Shown here: positions 2,306-58,714 of the stretch, piece by piece
How positions within the stretch are numbered: the first letter of the stretch is position 1
Layout of the letters: each line of letters begins with the position of its first letter
DNA from: Promethearchaeota archaeon
Lineage (GTDB): Archaea > Asgardarchaeota > Lokiarchaeia > Sigyniarchaeales > SOKP01
DNA: 64,000 nt
NCBI GenBank assembly: GCA_019894715.1
Contig: JAGXOA010000008.1
Location: forward strand, 6,710 to 70,709
Reading direction: 5' to 3'
Notes under the pieces: generated by a model
Database searches by the model: none
What the model saw: the letters and a program-made list of their open reading frames with translations, nothing else
Told to the model about the DNA's origin: nothing
Made by a program: the position numbers and the translations under genes

Positions 2306-2890
2306 GTGATAAAAATAAATATAAAACTTTCCAAACCTACTTTAAAAGGTTTAAAAAGCCTCGAAGAATGCATATATTACCGAAAAAGTATAAGAAATTT
2401 TAAACAGAAGGATGTAGATATCGATAAAATATCCCAAATTTTATGGGTTGCTCAAGGTTATAATAATAGCAAAAGAACAATACCTTCAGCAGGTGCTACT
2501 TATCCTTTAGAAATATATTTAACATACAAAAATAAAGGATTTTTTTATTATAATCTAATGAAAAACATATTAGAACTAAAAATAAATAAAGATTTATCTT
2601 ATGAAATAGCGAAATATGCACATTCTCAAGTATATCTTTATACTGCTCCAATAAATGTAATAATTTGTGCTGATTATTCAAGAACATGTGTAAGATATAA
2701 AGAGAAAGGAATAAGATATGTACATTTTGAAGCAGGTCATTGTGCTCAAAATATTCATTTACAAGCAGTAGCTTTAGGATTAGGTTCTGTACCTATTGGT
2801 GCATTTATTGATTATAATATAAAAGAAATATTAAGACTACCCGAAAATCTTACTCCACTTTATATAATATGTATAGGCTATCCAGAATAA
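2306..2890 (+). CDS. nitroreductase-family / SagB-type dehydrogenase domain protein
   Basis: GTG start. Motifs RKSIRNF, LWVAQGYN, RTIPSAGATYPLEIY and HFEAGHCAQNIHLQAVALGLGSVPIGAF are typical of the nitroreductase fold. Confidence 0.7.
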   Translation: MIKINIKLSKPTLKGLKSLEECIYYRKSIRNFKQKDVDIDKISQILWVAQGYNNSKRTIPSAGATYPLEIYLTYKNKGFFYYNLMKNILELKINKDLSYEIAKYAHSQVYLYTAPINVIICADYSRTCVRYKEKGIRYVHFEAGHCAQNIHLQAVALGLGSVPIGAFIDYNIKEILRLPENLTPLYIICIGYPE

Positions 2891-2942
2891 TCTAAATACA
2901 TTAATATAAAAGTAATAATTTCACTTCCTATAGTAGATAATA

Positions 2943-3683
2943 ATGTCCATCATAAAGAATATTAAAAACCAACTGAAAAAGAAAACTATTGAAGAAATAA
3001 ATAGTTTAATTATAGATTTATCAAAAAATCCAAATGAAAAGTCCAAATTTATTATAGAATATCTTATCAATAATCTTTCTCGAGAAGAATTTAACAGAAT
3101 AAAAATAAATCTATTTTATTTTATAGGTAGACTATCTAAAACAGAAAAAATTGAGAATATATTAATAGAATTTTTAATAGATCAATTCCAAATATCAGAC
3201 CAATGGGAAAGAAGGGAAATTACTAAATCACTTAGAATTATTTCTAAAAATCAACAATTAAATGAAGGAATTATCAATCAATTGGTGATATCTCTGAAAG
3301 AAGATTATATACCAATTATAAAAAATATATTGGAAATCATTCTAAATATTCAAAGTTTAAATCAAAATATGATCAATGATATTTTATTATTATCTGATCA
3401 TAGAGATCGAGATATATCGATACTAAAAAAGAAAATATTTCTAAAGTTTATACATAATGAAAAAGAACTCTTTAAATTGCTCGATAACATGGATTTTTAT
3501 GAAAAACTAAGTGAAAGAAGCTTTAGAAAAATAATTGTATCATATTTTAGCCAATTAATTGAATTAAAGCCCTTTAGAATTAGAATTGAAAATTCAAATT
3601 GGAAGGAAAGAAAAAAAGAAAATTTTCTTAAAGAATTAGACACTTTTCAAAAAATATTATCAAAGGCACCTAAATTTAGTTAA
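2943..3683 (+). CDS. hypothetical helical-repeat protein
   Basis: 246-aa ORF, Leu/Ile/Lys-rich and predicted all-helical. No specific family recognised. Confidence 0.45.
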   Translation: MSIIKNIKNQLKKKTIEEINSLIIDLSKNPNEKSKFIIEYLINNLSREEFNRIKINLFYFIGRLSKTEKIENILIEFLIDQFQISDQWERREITKSLRIISKNQQLNEGIINQLVISLKEDYIPIIKNILEIILNIQSLNQNMINDILLLSDHRDRDISILKKKIFLKFIHNEKELFKLLDNMDFYEKLSERSFRKIIVSYFSQLIELKPFRIRIENSNWKERKKENFLKELDTFQKILSKAPKFS

Positions 3684-3963
3684 ATATCATCAAAAAAAAT
3701 AATAAAAATATAAATATTTGTTATAAATTTTTATTAATAATTCTTAACACACCATCTCTTTAATAATCTCTCTTTTCTATATCTCTAATAAAACATCATA
3801 TTCAAGGTATATAAAAAAGAGATTATTAAAGAGATCAATAAAGATTAGCATTGGAATTTTGATATTATTATGAGATGATTTCCCTCATTTATGGAATAAT
3901 ATTCTCATTTCGAGAAAAATGATCATGAGCCTTCATCTATCATAGTTAGACTAAGACGACCTC

Positions 3964-4101
3964 ATGAATGGTAAAGTAGTCGGAGATGATTCCTTTGGGA
4001 ATTTATTCGATAGAGGTAACTGGTTTTGGCCTGTACGAATAAGGGATAAGATCCAAACTTCGTATGAACAAATTGTAGTAAAAAATGTTAATATTATTTA
4101 A
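3964..4101 (+). other. 45-codon micro-ORF inside Family-A copy 1 (coding status unproven)
   Basis: ATG 3964, TAA 4099-4101, reading [45 protein letters not shown]. The same frame is open with identical length in copy 2 (27016-27153). No Shine-Dalgarno-like sequence upstream. Confidence 0.3.
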
Positions 4102-4117
4102 CATTTTTACTATTTTT
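4078..4117 (+). terminator. hairpin plus T-tract at the 3' end of Family-A copy 1
   Basis: gtaaaaaatgttaa / tatta / ttaacatttttac forms a 13-bp stem with one bulged A, followed by tattttt. The identical structure occurs at 27130-27169. Confidence 0.55.
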
Positions 4118-4124
4118 GATAACC

Positions 4125-5321
4125 TTATTCTTGATTAATTTTATCATAATAAATAATATCATTAAAAATCTTTATTAATATCTTTATAATGTTTCTGGGA
4201 TTACCTTCTGACTTATTATAGATCTTCTTTAAAATACTTTTACTTAGAGGATAATATGGATTTTTGAAATCAGATAATATTTCGGAGGAATTGATTGATT
4301 TAAGAAATTTATCGATCGTAAGTTTATAGAATTTATAGATATCTTCTTCCTTAAAATTAGATAAAAATAATGGTTCTTTTAGATTATTTGATAGTTCTAT
4401 ATTCTCTTGTTTAAATAACTTTTTTATTTCATCTAAAGAATTTTTAGAATTCAAAGTAATAATTTTCTTTAAATTCTTGATATTTTGCAATTCAGAAATT
4501 TTACCTAAGATATTTTTTGCAACAATATTATCAGAAGACTCTTCTGCACCATAATACCAGCTAGAATCAAAAAAGGTTTCAATTTCTTCTTCTTCCTTCA
4601 TTAGAGTAATAATTTTATCAAAATCATCAATAAAAATAATAGTGCCTAGCTTAGAATTTTCTATCAATACTTTTAACATAGTAAAGGCATTTTTTTTATT
4701 TCTTAGATCATTCTCGACATCTAATAGGGCAAGTTCTCTTATATTCATAAGTTCTCCTAATAAATAATCTTCAGCATCTATTCTTTTATATGGATCTAGT
4801 TGATGTGAGGTTATAACATTTATAATATCATTTAAAGAATTTTTATCCCCAAAATCATCTTTCCATTTATTAAGCGCGTTACTTCTTGCTTTTTGGATAT
4901 CAGGTATCGGAAAGAATCCATACTTCTTTTCCAGACCACTCCAATTATTGCACAATTCTTGTGTAATCATTCTAAGGTTTTCTATTCCTAATTCTTCAAT
5001 AAATTCAGAATATAAGTTAAAATAGAATTTTCTGTAAATATTATCTAAGGATATATAGATAATATTAAACTTATCTTTAAGATTCATTTTAAGAGACCAA
5101 AATAAATGGGTTTTACCAACACCAATATCTCCAAGAATAGGTAAAATAAAACCCTCATTTTCAGTTACAAATTTTATTAAAGAATTTAAAAAATGTCTTC
5201 TTGAATCGACAAAATCTAATAATTCCTCTATTTCACCTGTAGCTACAAAATTATTAAATGGATTTATTTTTATTTTTAATAATTTTAAGAATTTGAGTTT
5301 TAGGTTTTCCCACAGAAGCAA
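4125..5321 (-). CDS. AAA+/ORC-Cdc6-like P-loop ATPase (archaeal-ATPase type)
   Basis: Walker A ILGDIGVGKTHLFW, Walker B IIFIDDFDKI, and a C-terminal lid-like SEGNPRNIIKILIKIF resembling the GxxR lid motif of Cdc6-like AAA+ proteins. Confidence 0.65.
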   Translation of the reverse strand: MLLWENLKLKFLKLLKIKINPFNNFVATGEIEELLDFVDSRRHFLNSLIKFVTENEGFILPILGDIGVGKTHLFWSLKMNLKDKFNIIYISLDNIYRKFYFNLYSEFIEELGIENLRMITQELCNNWSGLEKKYGFFPIPDIQKARSNALNKWKDDFGDKNSLNDIINVITSHQLDPYKRIDAEDYLLGELMNIRELALLDVENDLRNKKNAFTMLKVLIENSKLGTIIFIDDFDKIITLMKEEEEIETFFDSSWYYGAEESSDNIVAKNILGKISELQNIKNLKKIITLNSKNSLDEIKKLFKQENIELSNNLKEPLFLSNFKEEDIYKFYKLTIDKFLKSINSSEILSDFKNPYYPLSKSILKKIYNKSEGNPRNIIKILIKIFNDIIYYDKINQE

Positions 5322-8663: not shown

Positions 8664-8835
8664 AAAAAGAATTTTACTATTTAGATGAATGACATAGTTA
8701 TTCTATAAACTAACAACCTCCTATTATTTATATCTCTATAATTTCAATAAAAACATAGGTTGAAGAACCATCTTGTATTCTCTAATATCATATTAGGGAG
8801 TACGAATCTACTACCTTTAGGTAGTGATAGTTCAA
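8664..8835 (-). repeat. Family-B hairpin-ended repeat, copy B-8
   Basis: The reverse complement reads TTGAACTATCACTACCTAAAGGTAGTAGATTCGTACTCCCTAATATGATATTAGAGAATAC...GATATAAATAATAGGAGG. It is colinear with 48684-48830. It lies about 70 nt past the stop of the co-oriented peptidase gene. Confidence 0.75.
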
Positions 8836-24378: not shown

Positions 24379-26571
24379 TTATATTAAAGTTTTTGGTCTA
24401 ATTTTTTTTTTACTAATAGTTATTTTAATATCAACTGCACTATATCCTTTAACAAAAGAAAGTAAAGGATTTATATCTAATTCTACAATTTCAGGAAAAT
24501 CATTAACTAATTGGGATAATTTAAGCAATACATCGATAACTGCTTTGATATCTGAAGGCTTTTCACCTCGAACTCCTTGTAAAAGAATATAGGTTTTTGT
24601 TTTTTGTAACATTTTTTTTGCATTTTCTTCACTAAATTGATATGAAAGAGCAAAAGAAACATCTTTAAGGAAATTAGCATAGATCCCTCCAGCACCAATC
24701 ATTATTATTGGTCCAAATTGAGTATCTCGAGACATTCCTAATATTAATTCTGTTACTTTTTCTTGCTCTTTATAATTAATCATTTCTTGTATTTCAACAC
24801 CATAGATTCTAGCATTCTGTGGACCATATTTCTTACAATTATTTACTATTTGAATATAAGCCTTTGAAGCCTCTTCTGGTGTGGAAATATCTAATGCAAT
24901 TCCCCCAACATCGGTTTTATGAATTATTTGAGGACTTACAACTTTCATTACAGCATTTCCGATTTTTGGTTGTATTTCCATAGCTTGTCTAGGTGTTCTA
25001 GCCAATTTTGTTTTTGGAGCCTTAATTCCATAACATTCAAAGATTTTTACAGTTTCATAACTTAATAAAACTGTTCTTTTATCATTCCTAACTTTTTTAA
25101 TAATCCTTTTAACTCGATCTGTTTTACCTTCATATTTTTTTAAATTAGATGGTAATTCTGATTGTTGTTCTACAAAATAACTTCTTTTAATCATAGTTTT
25201 TAGAGTATGAGCAGCTCTATCAGGAAATTGATAACAAGGAATTTGGTTGTTCTTAAGAAATTGTCTTCCTTCTCTAATAGATATGTCACCTATAAATGAA
25301 CAAACAATAGTTTTATCTTTAAGATATTTCGAAATTGTTTTTTGAATAAACTTAGCAGCACGACTAGGATCTGTTTGAGCTTGAGGAGTTAAAATTATTA
25401 ATGCTCCATGAGTAGTAATTTCTTCTTCTTTTTCAAGAGTCTCTGAATCATCATCATTTATACCAAAAATAGTTTTTATAGCAAAAACATATCTTTCTGG
25501 AGGAGCATCTCCGACAATATCAACAGGATTAAAGATAGCTGCTTCAGCAGGTAAATTGTTCCGTAGTGTGTGTAGGATATGATCTGAAAATTCAGATAAA
25601 ATTAAACCTTCATTAGAAAATGCATCAGTAGCTACAATTCCAGGACCTCCTGCATTTGTTATTATAGCAAATGAGTTTTTTTTTGGAATAGGTTGATAAA
25701 GAAACACCTCAGCAAAATCGAATAAATCTTGTATTGAATTTGCTCTGATAACACCACATTTTTCAAATGCTAAATCATAAGCTGTATCTGACCCTGTAAG
25801 AGATCCAGTATGGCTAGATGCGGCTCTAGCCCCAGCTTCACTAATTCCTGATTTTAATATAATAATTGGTTTTCTTCTAGCTGCTTTTGGGACTACTTTT
25901 AAAAATCTTTTTCCATCATTAATACTTTCCAAATAGCAAATAATGACTTTTGTATTATCATCTTCTGCTAGATACTCAATGAAATCTACTGCTCCAAGAT
26001 CTGCTTTGTTACCTAAACTTATATTACAGGAAAAACCATAACTTTGTCCCAATGAATAATCCAACATACCCGTTAACATAGCTCCTGATTGGGAAATCAT
26101 AGCAATTTGACCTTTTTTAGGAGTTGCATGGGCAAATGACCCATTATAAGAACTACAAATAAAACCAAGACAATTTGGTCCAACAATTCTCATATTATAT
26201 TGTTTAGCCAATTGAATGATTTTATCTTCTCTCTCAACACCTTCCCCTCCTATTTCCTTGAATCCTGCCGTTATAATTATGATACCTTTAACGCCTTTCT
26301 TACCGCATTCTTCGACAACAGGCACTACAAATTTGCTTGGTATTACAAAGATAGCAATATCTATTTCTTCTGGGACATCTGAAATATTTTTATAAGCTTT
26401 TATACCTAGTATTTCATCGTCCCGTGGATTGATAGGATATACTTTTCCAGTATATTGAGAGTTTATAACGTTCTTTATAACGGAATTACCCACTTTTCCA
26501 TCCTTTGAGCTAGCACCAATTATTGCAATACTTTTTGGGTTAAAAAATTTCGAAATATCACTTTTTTCCAT
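24379..26571 (-). CDS. acd: ADP-forming acetyl-CoA synthetase (fused alpha-beta, NDP-forming acyl-CoA synthetase)
   Basis: CoA-binding N-terminus SIAIIGASSKDGKVGN. Ligase-CoA domain GPNCLGF, SQSGAM and phospho-His loop ASSHTGSLTG. C-terminal ATP-grasp KVVSPQIIHKTDVGG. Confidence 0.85.
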   Translation of the reverse strand: MEKSDISKFFNPKSIAIIGASSKDGKVGNSVIKNVINSQYTGKVYPINPRDDEILGIKAYKNISDVPEEIDIAIFVIPSKFVVPVVEECGKKGVKGIIIITAGFKEIGGEGVEREDKIIQLAKQYNMRIVGPNCLGFICSSYNGSFAHATPKKGQIAMISQSGAMLTGMLDYSLGQSYGFSCNISLGNKADLGAVDFIEYLAEDDNTKVIICYLESINDGKRFLKVVPKAARRKPIIILKSGISEAGARAASSHTGSLTGSDTAYDLAFEKCGVIRANSIQDLFDFAEVFLYQPIPKKNSFAIITNAGGPGIVATDAFSNEGLILSEFSDHILHTLRNNLPAEAAIFNPVDIVGDAPPERYVFAIKTIFGINDDDSETLEKEEEITTHGALIILTPQAQTDPSRAAKFIQKTISKYLKDKTIVCSFIGDISIREGRQFLKNNQIPCYQFPDRAAHTLKTMIKRSYFVEQQSELPSNLKKYEGKTDRVKRIIKKVRNDKRTVLLSYETVKIFECYGIKAPKTKLARTPRQAMEIQPKIGNAVMKVVSPQIIHKTDVGGIALDISTPEEASKAYIQIVNNCKKYGPQNARIYGVEIQEMINYKEQEKVTELILGMSRDTQFGPIIMIGAGGIYANFLKDVSFALSYQFSEENAKKMLQKTKTYILLQGVRGEKPSDIKAVIDVLLKLSQLVNDFPEIVELDINPLLSFVKGYSAVDIKITISKKKIRPKTLI

Positions 26572-27015
26572 GATGGAACAAGTTATTGAGATTAAATTGA
26601 TTTATAAAATAATTATATTTTAAGATATAATAGTTATAACTATCATATAATAAAAATCTTAAATATTATTGTTTGTATTATTTCTATTATTATTATTCAT
26701 TATGAACTTTTCTCACAATCATATCATCAAAAAAAATAATAAAAATATTAATATTTGTTATAAATTTTTATTAAAATTCATTCATCGTAATAAATAGACC
26801 AATAATTAAATTATTAATAATTCTTAACACACCATCTCTTTATATAAGATCTTTTCTCTTTTCTATCTCTCTAATAAATCATATCATTAATAAAGACTAG
26901 CATTGGAATTTTAATATTATTGTAAGAGGATTTCCCTCATTTGTGGAATAATATTCTCATTTCGAGAAAAATTATCATGATCTTTTATCTGTCATAGTTA
27001 GACTGAGACGACCTA

Positions 27016-27153
27016 ATGAATGCTAAAGTAGTCGAAAACGATTCTTTTTGGAATTTATTCGATAGAGGTAACTGGTTTTGGTCTGTACAAATAAGGGACA
27101 AGATCCAAACTTCGTATGAACAAATTATAGTAAAAAATGTTAATATTATTTAA
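27016..27153 (+). other. 45-codon micro-ORF inside Family-A copy 2 (coding status unproven)
   Basis: [45 protein letters not shown]. Same length and frame as copy 1. Confidence 0.3.
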
Positions 27154-27169
27154 CATTTTTACTTTTTTT
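27130..27169 (+). terminator. hairpin plus T-tract at the 3' end of Family-A copy 2
   Basis: Same stem-loop as 4078-4110, followed by ttttttt. Confidence 0.55.
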
Positions 27170-27223
27170 GATAACCTAATCAAAGCTTAATCTTATTAAA
27201 AAAAGCAAAATTTATCAAAATAT

Positions 27224-27700
27224 ATGACAATTATTAAGGTTGCAACAAACAAAGGAGATATAAATATTAATCTTTTTGATGAAGACGCTCCAATGACAGT
27301 AGCAAGTTTTCTTTTCTTATTAAGTAAAGAATTTTATAATGGGGTTATTTTCCACAGGGTTATTGATGATTTTATAATTCAAGGAGGTGATCCATTAGGA
27401 AGAGGAACTGGTGGACCAAAAGATAAAGGAATATCTTCATTTCCATATAAAGGAAAACAAATAAATTATCCTTTTCCTGACGAATTTCAATCAAGAAAAG
27501 TCTTTAATAAACAAGGTATTTTAGCTATGGCCAATTCTGGTTCAAATACAAATGGATCTCAATTCTTTATTACTCACCTACCAACCACATGGCTAAATAA
27601 TAAACATACAATCTTTGGTGAAGTTATAAATAATACAGATCAAGATATTGTAAACTCAATTAAAAAAGGAGATAAGATCAAAGAAATTACAGTTGTCTGA
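27224..27700 (+). CDS. ppiB: cyclophilin-type peptidyl-prolyl cis-trans isomerase
   Basis: Motifs FHRVIDDFIIQGGDP, GTGGP, LAMANSGSNTNGSQFFIT and HTIFGEV. Confidence 0.9.
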   Translation: MTIIKVATNKGDININLFDEDAPMTVASFLFLLSKEFYNGVIFHRVIDDFIIQGGDPLGRGTGGPKDKGISSFPYKGKQINYPFPDEFQSRKVFNKQGILAMANSGSNTNGSQFFITHLPTTWLNNKHTIFGEVINNTDQDIVNSIKKGDKIKEITVV

Positions 27701-30524: not shown

Positions 30525-30932
30525 ATGCTAATTCACGAAGTAGGTATTTTAATAGAAAGTATACCAGTAATTTGTAGAAAATATACTAAAAGGGAAGATC
30601 CTGTGGGAATAACTAGCAAGAGCGCATTAATTTCAAGTTTAATTAATTTTGCGGAAAACTTAATATCTCCCCTTGAATATTTTGAGAGCAATAATTACAA
30701 TATTATTTTTAAAAAGAAAAAAGGGAATAATGAGCTAGAAGCCGATTTTTTTATTTATATTGTTACAAAGAAAATAAAAAATTTTGAGAAGAAATGGAAA
30801 AAAAAAATGATGATTTTACTCGAAGATATTTTAAATAAGTTTTATTCAAAATATAATATCAAAGATTATTATGAAGTATCAATTTTTTCGGATTTTAATA
30901 AGATTATTGATAATTTGATCAATAATCTTTGA
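30525..30932 (+). CDS. hypothetical 135-aa protein
   Basis: ORF upstream of the hydrogenase operon. No motif recognised. A longin/roadblock-like alpha-beta fold is only a guess. Confidence 0.4.
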   Translation: MLIHEVGILIESIPVICRKYTKREDPVGITSKSALISSLINFAENLISPLEYFESNNYNIIFKKKKGNNELEADFFIYIVTKKIKNFEKKWKKKMMILLEDILNKFYSKYNIKDYYEVSIFSDFNKIIDNLINNL

Positions 30933-46139: not shown

Positions 46140-46255
46140 AATTTTTTACCTTATTAATATTGAATTATTATTAATTTATATCAAATATGTTCAATTATAA
46201 AGTTTGCTAAAAATTCTCTCTTAAAACTAAATCTAATAATTTATCATAATAACAA

Positions 46256-46845
46256 AAGAAAGCCCATTCCTTTAGGGAGGAGACAAATTTTGTTATAAAA
46301 ATTATTGCAAAAATCACTAATCGATATCATACCTTATTCTTAAATATAGGAAAATATTGATAATATCAGGGTTGATCATAGCTTACAAAAATCTTGACAA
46401 ATATCTGGACATTTTTTAAATTATTATTAGATTAGAAGGTTTTTTTATAATTTTATATATAGAAAAAAATCTATACTCATTTTATATATAAAATTTAGAA
46501 AATCAAGCTCGACTTTTTCTTTATATATGAATGTATATTATGAAGATAGCAAAAAAAAAAAATAGAATTGATAATATAAGAAAGAAATTATTATATTTTT
46601 CTCATTGGAATTAAAAATAAAGTGAAAGAGGATTTCCTTCAAATCGAGAAGAAATTATAAATTCTTTGGCTATGTCTATATGGTGTAGTCATGATCGTCC
46701 GTTGCCGATCCCTCAGGAGGTCATTTATTGATGTCCATAAATGTCCAGATTTTTTGCAACGGTAGAGAACAATTCTATAGTGTCTAAGATTCTCATTGAG
46801 GTTTAGGGACTGCAAATCCACTTCATTTAGGTATTGGTAGTTCAA
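46256..46845 (-). repeat. Family-B hairpin-ended repeat, long copy B-46 (~590 bp, with internal cargo)
   Basis: The reverse complement starts TTGAACTACCAATACCTAAATGAAGTGGATTTGCAGTCCCTAA and ends TCTCCTCCCTAAAGGAATGGGCTTTCTT. Both termini are colinear with the ~194-bp copy at 58521-58714, and about 380 bp of extra sequence lies between them. Confidence 0.7.
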
Positions 46846-46925
46846 ATTCTATTATTTCAATGAATTATATATAACTTTTTATTTAAATCAATATAAAATC
46901 CTAAAATAAAAAAAAAAATTAAAGA

Positions 46926-47375
46926 TTAATACATATCTTCTCTTGGAAGTGCAGCTGCAATAATTCCAAGGACAGCACCACCAACTATTAAGAAAAGACC
47001 TAACCCATAATCTCCAATATTTACTACAACTGGAAAAACATCTCCTATTTGGGTTTCTGACATCATAAAAATCATTGTGAGGGCAAGTTGATCCATTATT
47101 GCTATATCAGAAGCGATTCCTAATATAAAAATTATACCAACAATAAGAGGAGCAATTGCTCCAAATATGCTAGCAACTCTATATTTCATTCCTATTAATA
47201 AGAAGATTCCAGAAATTACAAAAAGCAAAGATATTATTAGCACATTATATCTCCAAAAGCCTTCTAATCCCACAAATAGAGCCATATCAGAAGTATATTG
47301 GAAATTATCACCTATATTTTGAAAAAATCCTACGCCTGAGACCGCTGTTCCTCCACCACCTAACAAAGCGAACAA
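46926..47375 (-). CDS. small polytopic membrane protein, paralogue 2 (5' end apparently degraded)
   Basis: C-terminus GLGLFLIVGGAVLGIIAAALPREDMY matches paralogue 1. Sequence homologous to paralogue 1's first helix (IISAILTILGTF) lies upstream of the TTG start, behind an in-frame TAA. Confidence 0.5.
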   Translation of the reverse strand: MFALLGGGGTAVSGVGFFQNIGDNFQYTSDMALFVGLEGFWRYNVLIISLLFVISGIFLLIGMKYRVASIFGAIAPLIVGIIFILGIASDIAIMDQLALTMIFMMSETQIGDVFPVVVNIGDYGLGLFLIVGGAVLGIIAAALPREDMY

Positions 47376-48159: not shown

Positions 48160-48687
48160 ATGGAATTAGAGAAAAATATAAAAATACTGATACACGAAAG
48201 AAATATTCAAAAAACTATAAAAGAAATAGCTCAAATTATAAATAAAGATTATCGAACTAAAAATCCCATATTAATATGTGTTTTAAAAGGCGCATGTATT
48301 TTTTTTGTTGATTTAATTCGTTATTTAAATATAGAAATTGAAATTGAGTTTATTGAATTATCCAGTTATGGAGCAAATATTGAAAGTTCAGAAAAAGTTA
48401 AAATAATTAAATGGTTAACATCAGATATAGAGAACAGAGAAATAATCATCATAGAGGATATTGTTGATACAGGGATTACTATAGATTTTCTCATTAACAA
48501 ACTTAGTGAATGTAATCCTTTATCTATTAAATTATGTTCATTAACAAGTAAACCAACCAAACGAAAAAAAAAAATAAAAATAGATTATATAGGATTTGAA
48601 ATTCCAGATAAATTTATTATTGGTTATGGGTTTGATTTGAATGAAAAGTATAGAAATTTAAGAGATATTTATTATATTGATGATTGA
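48160..48687 (+). CDS. hpt: hypoxanthine/guanine phosphoribosyltransferase
   Basis: Preferred ATG at 48160 (MELEKN). Motifs ILICVLKGACIFFVDL, the PRPP loop IIIIEDIVDTGITI, and IGYGFD. Confidence 0.85.
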   Translation: MELEKNIKILIHERNIQKTIKEIAQIINKDYRTKNPILICVLKGACIFFVDLIRYLNIEIEIEFIELSSYGANIESSEKVKIIKWLTSDIENREIIIIEDIVDTGITIDFLINKLSECNPLSIKLCSLTSKPTKRKKKIKIDYIGFEIPDKFIIGYGFDLNEKYRNLRDIYYIDD

Positions 48688-48880
48688 ACTACCTCTACCT
48701 AAAGGAAGTGGATTCGAACTCCCTAATATAATATTAGACAATACTGGATGGTTCTCCAACCTATGTATTTATTGGAATTATAGAGATATAAATGATAGGA
48801 GGGTGTTAATTTATAGAAGAATTATGTAATTCATCCACTCCTTAAAATAAGTGGCTTTCTTGCATATAAATGGTAAAAAG
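48684..48880 (+). repeat. Family-B hairpin-ended repeat, reference copy B-48
   Basis: TTGAAC (48684-48689) overlaps the hpt stop codon. Hairpin 1 is CTACCTCTACCTAAAGGAAGTGG and hairpin 2 is CCACTCCTTAAAATAAGTGG, followed by CTTTCTTGCATATAAATGGTAAAAAG. Confidence 0.75.
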
Positions 48881-58520: not shown

Positions 58521-58714
58521 AAGAAATTCCCTTCTTTTAGGGATGGGATGAATTTAAAAAAAAGAAATATTGTAAAAATCCTTAATTGATATCACAACCA
58601 ATTCTTAAATAGAGAAAAACATTAATTAGGGTAGAGAAATATCCTGTAGTGTCTAAGATTCTCATTAAGGTTTAGAAACTTAAAATACACTTCCTTTAGG
58701 TAGTGGTAGTTCAA
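58521..58714 (-). repeat. Family-B hairpin-ended repeat, copy B-58
   Basis: The reverse complement starts TTGAACTACCACTACCTAAAGGAAGTG..AACCTTAATGAGAATCTTAGACACTACAGG and ends CATCCCATCCCTAAAAGAAGGGAATTTCTT. It is colinear with both ends of B-46. Confidence 0.75.

Follow-up and report, generated by a model that had tools for sequence, protein, structure and literature searches.

A probable tnpB-deleted, PATE-type derivative of IS200/IS605 transposons, with an RNA module homologous to tnpB 3′ ends, in a Lokiarchaeota contig

The window analysed here is a 64,000-nucleotide (nt) stretch from a Promethearchaeota archaeon (GenBank assembly GCA_019894715.1, contig JAGXOA010000008.1, positions 6,710 to 70,709 of the forward strand). 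It carries two copies of one element, at 3684-4127 (copy A) and 26721-27179 (copy B), which are ~90% identical and have unrelated flanks. Copy A is set between the convergent open reading frames (ORFs) 2943-3683(+) and 4125-5321(-), and copy B between the divergent ORFs 24379-26571(-) and 27224-27700(+). A first-pass annotation of the bare sequence had taken the pair for a candidate novel non-coding RNA (ncRNA). Our comparative analysis indicates that each copy is very probably a tnpB-deleted, non-autonomous derivative of an IS200/IS605 (IS1341/TnpB-type) transposon, of the kind termed palindrome-associated transposable elements (PATEs). The element retains its left end (LE), an omega-RNA module and its right end (RE), and has lost the TnpB nuclease gene; elements of this sort have been described before, and it does not constitute a new class of RNA.

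From left to right, the element comprises an LE palindrome, a variable filler, the last ~45-65 decayed codons of tnpB, an RE hairpin and a terminal oligonucleotide. Identities by part, boundaries and the delimitation of copies come from comparisons among A, B and a third copy, C, which lies on ENA contig L005 (~2667-3164) between an ORF of 353 amino acids (aa) and a LysE gene. Two more distant loci serve as references: L066 (~2174-2663), a diverged tnpB-less member on an actin-encoding Asgard contig, and L065 (ENA ERZ23499174 scaffold_9158), which encodes the 432-aa protein P0136. Two RNA models are used throughout, namely R1, a covariance model of the 155-nt module, and R2, an independent model built solely from 23 intact viral tnpB 3′ ends aligned with MAFFT. 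The features are as follows.

3684-4127, plus strand: copy A, whole tnpB-less IS200/IS605-type (PATE-like) element (MAFFT alignment with B and C; nhmmer E 7.5e-152)
26721-27179, plus strand: copy B, whole element (alignment with A and C; orthologous site empty in a sister species)
3684-3745, plus strand: LE of copy A, with the palindrome TAATAAAAAT...ATTTTTATTA at 3700-3736 (95-99% identity among A, B and C)
26721-26782, plus strand: LE of copy B, with the palindrome at 26737-26773 (98% identity over the first 54 nt; fold)
3755-3834, no strand assigned: variable filler, an AT-rich imperfect palindrome of ~80 nt (3′ half deleted in B; unrelated in L066)
3869-3972, plus strand: 5′ core block of copy A (AAGAGGATTTCCC...TTCTCATTTCGAGAAA...), a putative degenerate upstream tnpB remnant with in-frame stops (conserved among A, B, C and L066)
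26924-27024, plus strand: 5′ core block of copy B (conserved with A, C and L066)
3964-4101, plus strand: 45-aa ORF of copy A, a pseudogene remnant of the TnpB C-terminal tail (profile and tblastn matches)
27016-27153, plus strand: 45-aa ORF of copy B (identical to P0002, KGD63_00435)
3973-4127, plus strand: module of copy A homologous to an omega-RNA scaffold and RE (DNA alignment with L065; R1, 174.6 bits; R2 at 3973-4068, E 2.4e-6)
27025-27179, plus strand: omega-RNA/RE-homologous module of copy B (R1, 162.1 bits; R2 at 27025-27120, E 1.6e-3)
4075-4113, plus strand: RE subterminal hairpin of copy A (single-stranded DNA fold -9.7 kcal/mol, z -3.36)
27129-27163, plus strand: RE hairpin of copy B (single-stranded DNA fold -9.9 kcal/mol, z -3.51)
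4116-4127, plus strand: RE tip of copy A, TTGATAACCTTA (identical dodecamer at L065 4311-4322)
27168-27179, plus strand: RE tip of copy B, TTGATAACCTAA (same tip in L066)

The two regions align end to end, as the first-pass annotation had claimed. In MAFFT, 3684-4133 and 26721-27185 match over their full length at ~90% identity with two indels: relative to A, copy B carries an insertion of 43 nt behind the 5′ block and lacks 34 nt in its middle. The 3′ 300 nt (3834-4133 and 26886-27185) align without a gap at 90% identity, and over the first 54 nt the identity is 98%. In the 18-20 nt outside either boundary, identity falls to 25-60%, which upholds the view of an intrinsic, repeated plus-strand unit in two unrelated contexts, convergent and divergent. 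The copies had been drawn to end at 4125 and 27177; both are real, but they run to 4127 and 27179 and include the terminal tip, the right boundary of copy A being placed at 4127 because this tip is common to L065. The element ranges from 444 to 500 nt in length, and its longest ORF encodes 45 aa. A conserved 21-mer of the core is observed twice in the window, with 0 occurrences expected by chance, and nhmmer with a three-copy profile found no third copy or fragment within the 64 kb.

The core is less AT-rich than its surroundings, as had been noted, with a GC content of 34% compared to 12-21% in the remainder of the element. It had also been singled out as conserved, and at 91-93% identity among the copies it is; yet the 5′ block (95-99%) and the hairpin with its tip (92-96%) are more so, and by substitutions the core is the least conserved part of the element, not the most conserved.

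The descent of the element can be read from this core. The first-pass annotation had stated that neither copy contains a track ORF; the 45-aa ORF is present in both, and the source metagenome-assembled genome (MAG) lists the version of copy B, along with three more, as hypothetical proteins. A profile of five 45-aa peptides (full HMMER search) matches residues 390-426 of P0136 and also several C-terminal fragments of TnpB, following the pattern ...YTSKxCS...LNADVNGALNILRKV(V/I)GDxF...DRGxWFQPVRIRD.... P0136 is a TnpB, since its gene (L065 3001-4299) carries the Pfam domains OrfB_IS605 and Cas12f1-like_TNB. In tblastn, TnpB tails align to the copies with 56-66% identity over 41 aa (E to 9e-17), and a weak TnpB alignment reaches back to ~3901 over the RuvC-III region, where it meets in-frame stops and one deletion. 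Given these matches to the TnpB tail and the upstream RuvC-III region broken by stops and a deletion, the 45-aa ORF is, as judged by homology, the decayed 3′ tail of tnpB and hence a pseudogene remnant. Consistently, the core aligns at the DNA level with the last ~130 nt of the L065 tnpB and ~25 nt downstream of it, and both the core and the L065 locus finish in the same dodecamer, TTGATAACCTTA, ~25 nt past the L065 stop codon. A clear protein-level match, to the C-terminal tail of TnpB, thus identifies a pseudogene remnant within the supposed ncRNA, a finding that the first-pass annotation had itself listed as refuting its proposal.

It is extremely unlikely that the 45-aa peptide is instead the product of a real small-protein gene. 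Five copies keep the ORF open, it is annotated in the MAG, and the pN/pS ratio among A, B and C is 0.29-0.55, a value computed from just 3-5 synonymous and 6-8.5 non-synonymous changes. Compared with L066, however, the ratio is 0.84; 14 of the 45 residues vary among close copies, the N-terminus is shifted in the P0004 copy, and the peptide has no match in Pfam. The sequence corresponds, moreover, to the tail of a nuclease of more than 400 aa whose catalytic RuvC-III region has been destroyed by stops and a deletion, and the overlapping RNA described below would account for conservation at the nucleotide level.

Further copies of the element exist outside the window, as the first-pass annotation had proposed to check. 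Databases contain four relatives of the 45-aa peptide, each annotated as a hypothetical protein in a single Candidatus Lokiarchaeota MAG (KGD63_00435, _15170, _11625 and _06895), and one of these is identical to the ORF of copy B; together with copy A, these four peptides amount to at least five distinct copies in the MAG. Copies A, B and C differ from one another by mosaic indels, and short-read contigs of the same strain repeatedly terminate inside the element. The diverged member L066 has only two parts in common with A-C, the ~55-nt LE and the segment from AAGAGGATTTCCC to the right tip, and its middle is unrelated. Thus, the conserved modules of the element are the LE, the tnpB 3′/RNA module and the RE.

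Comparison with a sister species (L050, ACS 86% identical) shows that copy B is an insertion. This species keeps the cyclophilin-ACS arrangement, with 197 nt between the two genes as opposed to 652 nt in the window, and its gap is close to the combined window flanks of copy B (149+44 nt); the site of copy B is therefore empty in the sister species. At least five copies that differ by mosaic indels, an orthologous site without the element and contigs that break within it together describe a non-autonomous transposon; the first-pass annotation had named the copy-number pattern of a decaying transposon fragment, coupled with a lack of covariation, as evidence against its own proposal.

Searches beyond these relatives returned little. 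Exact-pattern scans with the most conserved core block gave 0 matches in collections of genome, metagenome and viral contigs, and blastn of the core gave none in phage or plasmid sets. A concatenated six-frame peptide query found no other called ORF overlapping further copies, and look-ups for the P0002-P0004 copies yielded no DNA record. Look-ups of the proteins flanking A and C retrieved same-strain contigs alone, which either carry the element or break inside it, and a JGI scan with the JAB protein beside copy C retrieved only relatives of 54-58% identity. In the closest GTDB relative (L007/L053), the contig ends 191-264 nt upstream of ACS and the synteny differs.

Two observations concern individual insertion sites. 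In L050, the empty site of copy B (~4990-5020, reverse strand) reads TTTTTAACTGAATAACC, which resembles the right tip TTTTTTTGATAACC with two small indels; this likeness could reflect chance, a target preference or the relic of an old imprecise loss. Copy A occupies the entire gap between its convergent neighbours. ORF 2943-3683 closes with a stop codon (3681-3683) that directly adjoins the first base of the LE, and the last 3 nt of the tip (TTA, 4125-4127) form the stop codon of ORF 4125-5321(-). Since the RE tip supplies this stop codon, insertion of copy A may have reshaped the C-terminus of the encoded product.

The structured nature of the core becomes apparent only in wider comparisons. 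The first-pass annotation had proposed RNAalifold and covariation as a check, and covariation proves strong in alignments of five and of 37 sequences and absent, on either strand, among A, B and C alone. In the five-sequence alignment (A, B, C, L066 and L065), RNAalifold predicts 54 pairs, of which 11 show compensatory changes. Here 93% of cells are paired, and the 11 double-change pairs compare with 5.4±1.5 in shuffled alignments (0 of 500 reach this number) and 1-5 when partners are slid; the numerous G-U pairs indicate the plus strand. We then ran R1 on 65 TnpB loci of viral contigs, which had been found with the TnpB-tail alignment. In ~48 of them it matched the tnpB 3′ end at full length and on the plus strand, with the match starting directly behind the ...NILRK codons. 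In the 37-sequence alignment, 88% of cells pair, as against 61% after shuffling and ~42% with slid partners; double changes occur in 39 of 41 pairs, with a covariation score of 0.505 versus 0.158. RNAalifold run on the 37 sequences independently recovers the main helices, with compensatory changes in 21 of 24 pairs, namely a two-tier 5′ hairpin, a GGCG/CGCC helix and a AGAAUAAGG...CAAACUUCU helix.

R2 leads to the same place. In the whole 64 kb it matches just the two cores, and beyond the window it matches copy C, L066 and L065. The models thus indicate that the core corresponds to a conserved structured RNA common to tnpB 3′ ends. Because this RNA overlaps the tnpB terminus and ends at the RE, we assign the module, by position and homology, as a putative TnpB omega-RNA (reRNA) scaffold plus RE; the 5′ core block upstream of it possibly forms the 5′ part of the RNA as well.

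Accordingly, the proposal of a novel ncRNA survives in part: the core does fit a structured RNA model, but the RNA is of a known type. It is very unlikely that the two copies represent an independent gene for a structured ncRNA of ~400 nt and of a new class, duplicated along with its own promoter and terminator. In favour of such a gene are the plus-strand structure with many G-U pairs, the A/T-rich block upstream, the 3′ hairpin with T-runs and the absence of any matching Rfam family; the first-pass annotation had likewise failed to match a known RNA, and Rfam gives 0 matches at gathering thresholds across the whole window. The structured part is, however, homologous to widespread tnpB 3′ ends and has a TnpB pseudogene remnant inside it, the element behaves as an insertion, and the supposed promoter and terminator are transposon ends conserved with L066 and L065. 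Searched against Rfam at E up to 10, the element yields sub-threshold microRNA models on the AT palindrome alone. These matches of 3755-3834 to animal microRNA models (E 4e-5 in a permissive search, far under gathering scores) are spurious, as AT-rich hairpins yield false matches. A tRNA/tmRNA scan of the window found none.

Some viral relatives of the module show additional features. Two contigs carry two RNA-model matches each (L084 116-260 and 1610-1746; L123 1724-1865 and 1873-2013), the second L123 match being weak (E 0.45); the extra matches could be additional tnpB-less or tandem RNA modules. In L105, L122, L120, L119, L090, L095, L125 and other viral loci, an additional covarying hairpin occupies a loop at alignment columns ~100-140 (for example GCCUGAUUAAAUCGGGC then GGAAACUUAAAU), where the Lokiarchaeota copies and L065 have 3-5 nt.

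Both ends of the element bear palindromes, which lie on the same strand. The LE, which had been read as an A/T-rich TATA-like block, is a conserved transposon end of which ~55 nt are also kept in L066; its palindrome forms a 10-bp AT stem in all copies, although as single-stranded DNA it folds no better than shuffled sequences. The ~80-nt AT palindrome that follows (3755-3834) is also present in copy C and half deleted in copy B, and this internal region is dispensable. At the 3′ end, the proposed hairpin/T-tract terminator does contain a stable hairpin (z about -3.4 in A and -3.5 in B), but it represents the RE palindrome with a tip shared with L065. The hairpin has 14-15 bp with one bulge, and 0 of 200 shuffles fold equally well in A and B; it is weaker in copy C (z -2.1). 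Helix 9 of the predicted RNA structure, which lies in this hairpin, shows compensatory changes relative to L066 and L065. The terminal oligonucleotide TTGATAACCT(T/A)A is common to A, B, L066 and L065, B and L066 ending in ...CCTAA, and the tip of copy C reads TTGATAAGCTTA (...AAGCTTA). The tips at the two extremes are unlike, TATCATC... on the left and ...GATAACCTTA on the right.

Several observations at the junctions (four junction pairs and one empty site) weigh against an IS200/IS605 origin, and we set them out here together with those concerning the RNA. Strict IS200/IS605 targeting predicts a single motif common to all insertions, and the 4 nt left of the LE are inconsistent: TTAA in A and L066, AATC in B and CTAG in C. 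Were the LE to begin 4-5 nt further in, every left flank would end in (A/G)TAT. In copy C, the LE matches the RE in inverted orientation, perfectly over 18 nt and at 88% over 42 nt. Copy B can be read with the 5-nt repeat AATCA on both sides, as a possible duplication; A, C and L066 have no target duplication. Neither an intact tnpB nor a tnpA (Y1 HUH or IS607-type serine recombinase) is found in the window or in the examined contigs of the organism. As for the RNA, the substitutions among A, B and C are never compensatory and several break predicted pairs, two of them in the RE hairpin of copy C; the core of the P0004 copy has lost an internal segment; and immediately ahead of the RE tip are two T5 runs (4103-4116 in copy A), which could halt archaeal RNA polymerase before the guide is transcribed. 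Finally, the alignment behind the covariation values was fitted to the model, and conserved coding sequence contributes part of the model score.

The inverted LE/RE match and the possible AATCA duplication would also suit a conventional miniature inverted-repeat transposable element (MITE), that is, an element with terminal inverted repeats and target-site duplications moved by cut-and-paste through a DDE transposase, in which the tnpB likeness would be incidental cargo. A DDE_Tnp_1 transposase is indeed present on the contig of the sister species. This origin is nonetheless improbable: a duplication is lacking at A, C and L066, the extreme tips mismatch, the right tip and hairpin geometry are common to an intact tnpB element, and the similar palindromes carried by both ends account for the inverted match. 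With tnpB homology and no duplication at three of four copies, we dropped this explanation.

The sister-species transposase (L050 233-1537(-), Pfam E 1.1e-7) lies beside hypC, and its site corresponds in the window to a 135-aa ORF at 30525-30932, which constitutes a second insertion difference between the two species. It was considered as a partner of the element and rejected, as its candidate inverted repeats are unrelated to those of the element.

For the preferred origin, a tnpB-deleted IS200/IS605 derivative, we assume partners acting in trans. The TnpA of the IS200/IS605 family is a Y1 HUH enzyme that works by single-stranded ‘peel-and-paste’ and recognises the hairpins of the ends. By analogy with this biology, the copies would be mobilised by a TnpA encoded elsewhere, and transcription through the RE would produce an omega-RNA with ~16-20 nt of the adjacent flank as its guide. 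A TnpB encoded at another locus could be directed by this RNA to cut the vacated donor site again.

That the present copies still make a functional guide RNA, and are not inert relics, is conceivable and somewhat short of probable. A tentative reading of the same data is that the copies share this origin but are immobile tnpB relics without a usable guide RNA, drifting neutrally. The zero compensatory changes among A, B and C, the several pair-breaking ones, the mosaic indels (including that within the core of the P0004 copy), pN/pS values not clearly below 1, the T5 runs upstream of the RE tip and the lack of a tnpB nearby in the window and the examined contigs all fit such decay. Against it, both diverged tnpB-less subfamilies keep the ends and the RNA module and not the middle, all copies still fit the independently built R2, and the 90% identity among dispersed copies argues for a fairly recent spread. 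PATEs bearing omega-RNAs have, in addition, been reported as common (PMC10055086).

A more specific role is unlikely, namely that the copies are dispersed ‘orphan’ guide-RNA genes, transcribed from the LE through the RE and loaded in trans onto TnpB. The partner, a TnpB or a nuclease-dead derivative, would then be encoded elsewhere, and the RNA would serve the homing of the family or, after co-option, act on genes nearby; copy B, for instance, lies 44 nt upstream of the start codon of the cyclophilin gene. Were this role confirmed, the family would parallel, in an Asgard archaeon, both the use of omega-RNAs in trans and exaptation of the TldR type.

A second intergenic repeat family occurs in the window, at 8671-8835(-), 48684-48848(+), 46761-46845(-) and 58630-58714(-). 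Its four copies share a block of ~85 nt (TTGAACTACCACTACCTAAAGGAAGTGGATTCGAACTCCCTAA...TTAGACAATAC...GGTTCTC), and the two long ones have ~165-230 nt in common at ~85%. The block holds a T-loop-like GGATTCGAAC, for which ARAGORN and Rfam give no match, and comparison of the family with the TnpB-tail peptides and R1 produced no convincing match. One copy, which ends in GGTAGTTCAA, falls within an ORF-free intergenic region of 790 nt (46140-46930). About 100 nt upstream of it, AAAGAGGATTTCCTTCAAATCGAGAAG (46620-46660) resembles a shortened form of the 5′ core block of the element described above (AAGAGGATTTCCCTCA...TTTCGAGAAA), and the region may be another transposon-derived remnant.

These results resolve an apparent novel ncRNA into a known mechanism and document a PATE-type family bearing a putative omega-RNA module in a Lokiarchaeota genome. 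They also allow the hypothetical proteins KGD63_00435, _15170, _11625 and _06895 to be reannotated as TnpB-tail pseudogene fragments, and they provide an RNA model of the TnpB clade, without a counterpart in Rfam, that could be reused to annotate such elements. If the copies are expressed, they would offer a test system for the use of TnpB guide RNAs in trans in archaea close to eukaryotes.

The closest described counterparts are the PATEs, which were first described in Haloquadratum walsbyi and derive from IS605/IS1341-type transposons (PMC3119063). They are defined by the lack of a transposase, near-terminal palindromes, no target duplication and a conserved 3′ oligonucleotide, and arise by core deletion that sometimes leaves a disrupted C-terminal coding remnant; one of them, HqIRS71, retains part of the TnpB C-terminal coding region (PMC3119063). 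The Lokiarchaeota element is likewise too short for a transposase, has near-terminal palindromes at both ends and a conserved 3′ terminal oligonucleotide, shows no regular target duplication at the four junction pairs (a possible one at copy B), is multi-copy with strain- or species-specific insertions, and appears to have arisen by deletion of the tnpB core with a disrupted C-terminal remnant left behind. It differs in its host, an Asgard (Lokiarchaeota) archaeon of 26% GC, in having no sequence in common with elements in the phage and plasmid sets or the scanned collections, in the motif preceding the LE, which varies across the four observed junctions, and in the inverted similarity of its ends, which PATEs are said to lack.

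PATEs ‘often encode omega-RNAs’ on which TnpB acts in trans (Meers et al. 2023, PMC10055086). Like an omega-RNA, the module overlaps the last tnpB codons and finishes at the RE, as judged by homology and by R1 and R2 at L065 and the viral loci; it has a plus-strand structure with strong covariation across the clade, and the tnpB-less copies keep exactly this part. It departs from one in that T5 runs precede the tip and no Rfam 15 model matches, so that its assignment as a putative omega-RNA relies on its position and its homology to tnpB loci and not on a curated family. The L065 locus has the same tail (…GDxF…DRGxWFQPVRIR…), RNA helices related by compensatory changes and the TTGATAACCTTA tip, but it contains a complete tnpB, belongs to a higher-GC organism and has a left end that we could not match to the LE. 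With MITEs, the element shares small size, non-coding and multi-copy character, intergenic location and the need for a transposase in trans, and it differs from them in its clear descent from tnpB, its unlike tips and the lack of a regular duplication (at most one of four copies). The literature searched yielded no paper on MITEs or PATEs of Asgard archaea; among IS families, IS200/IS605 is the most frequent in Asgard genomes (PMC13343696).

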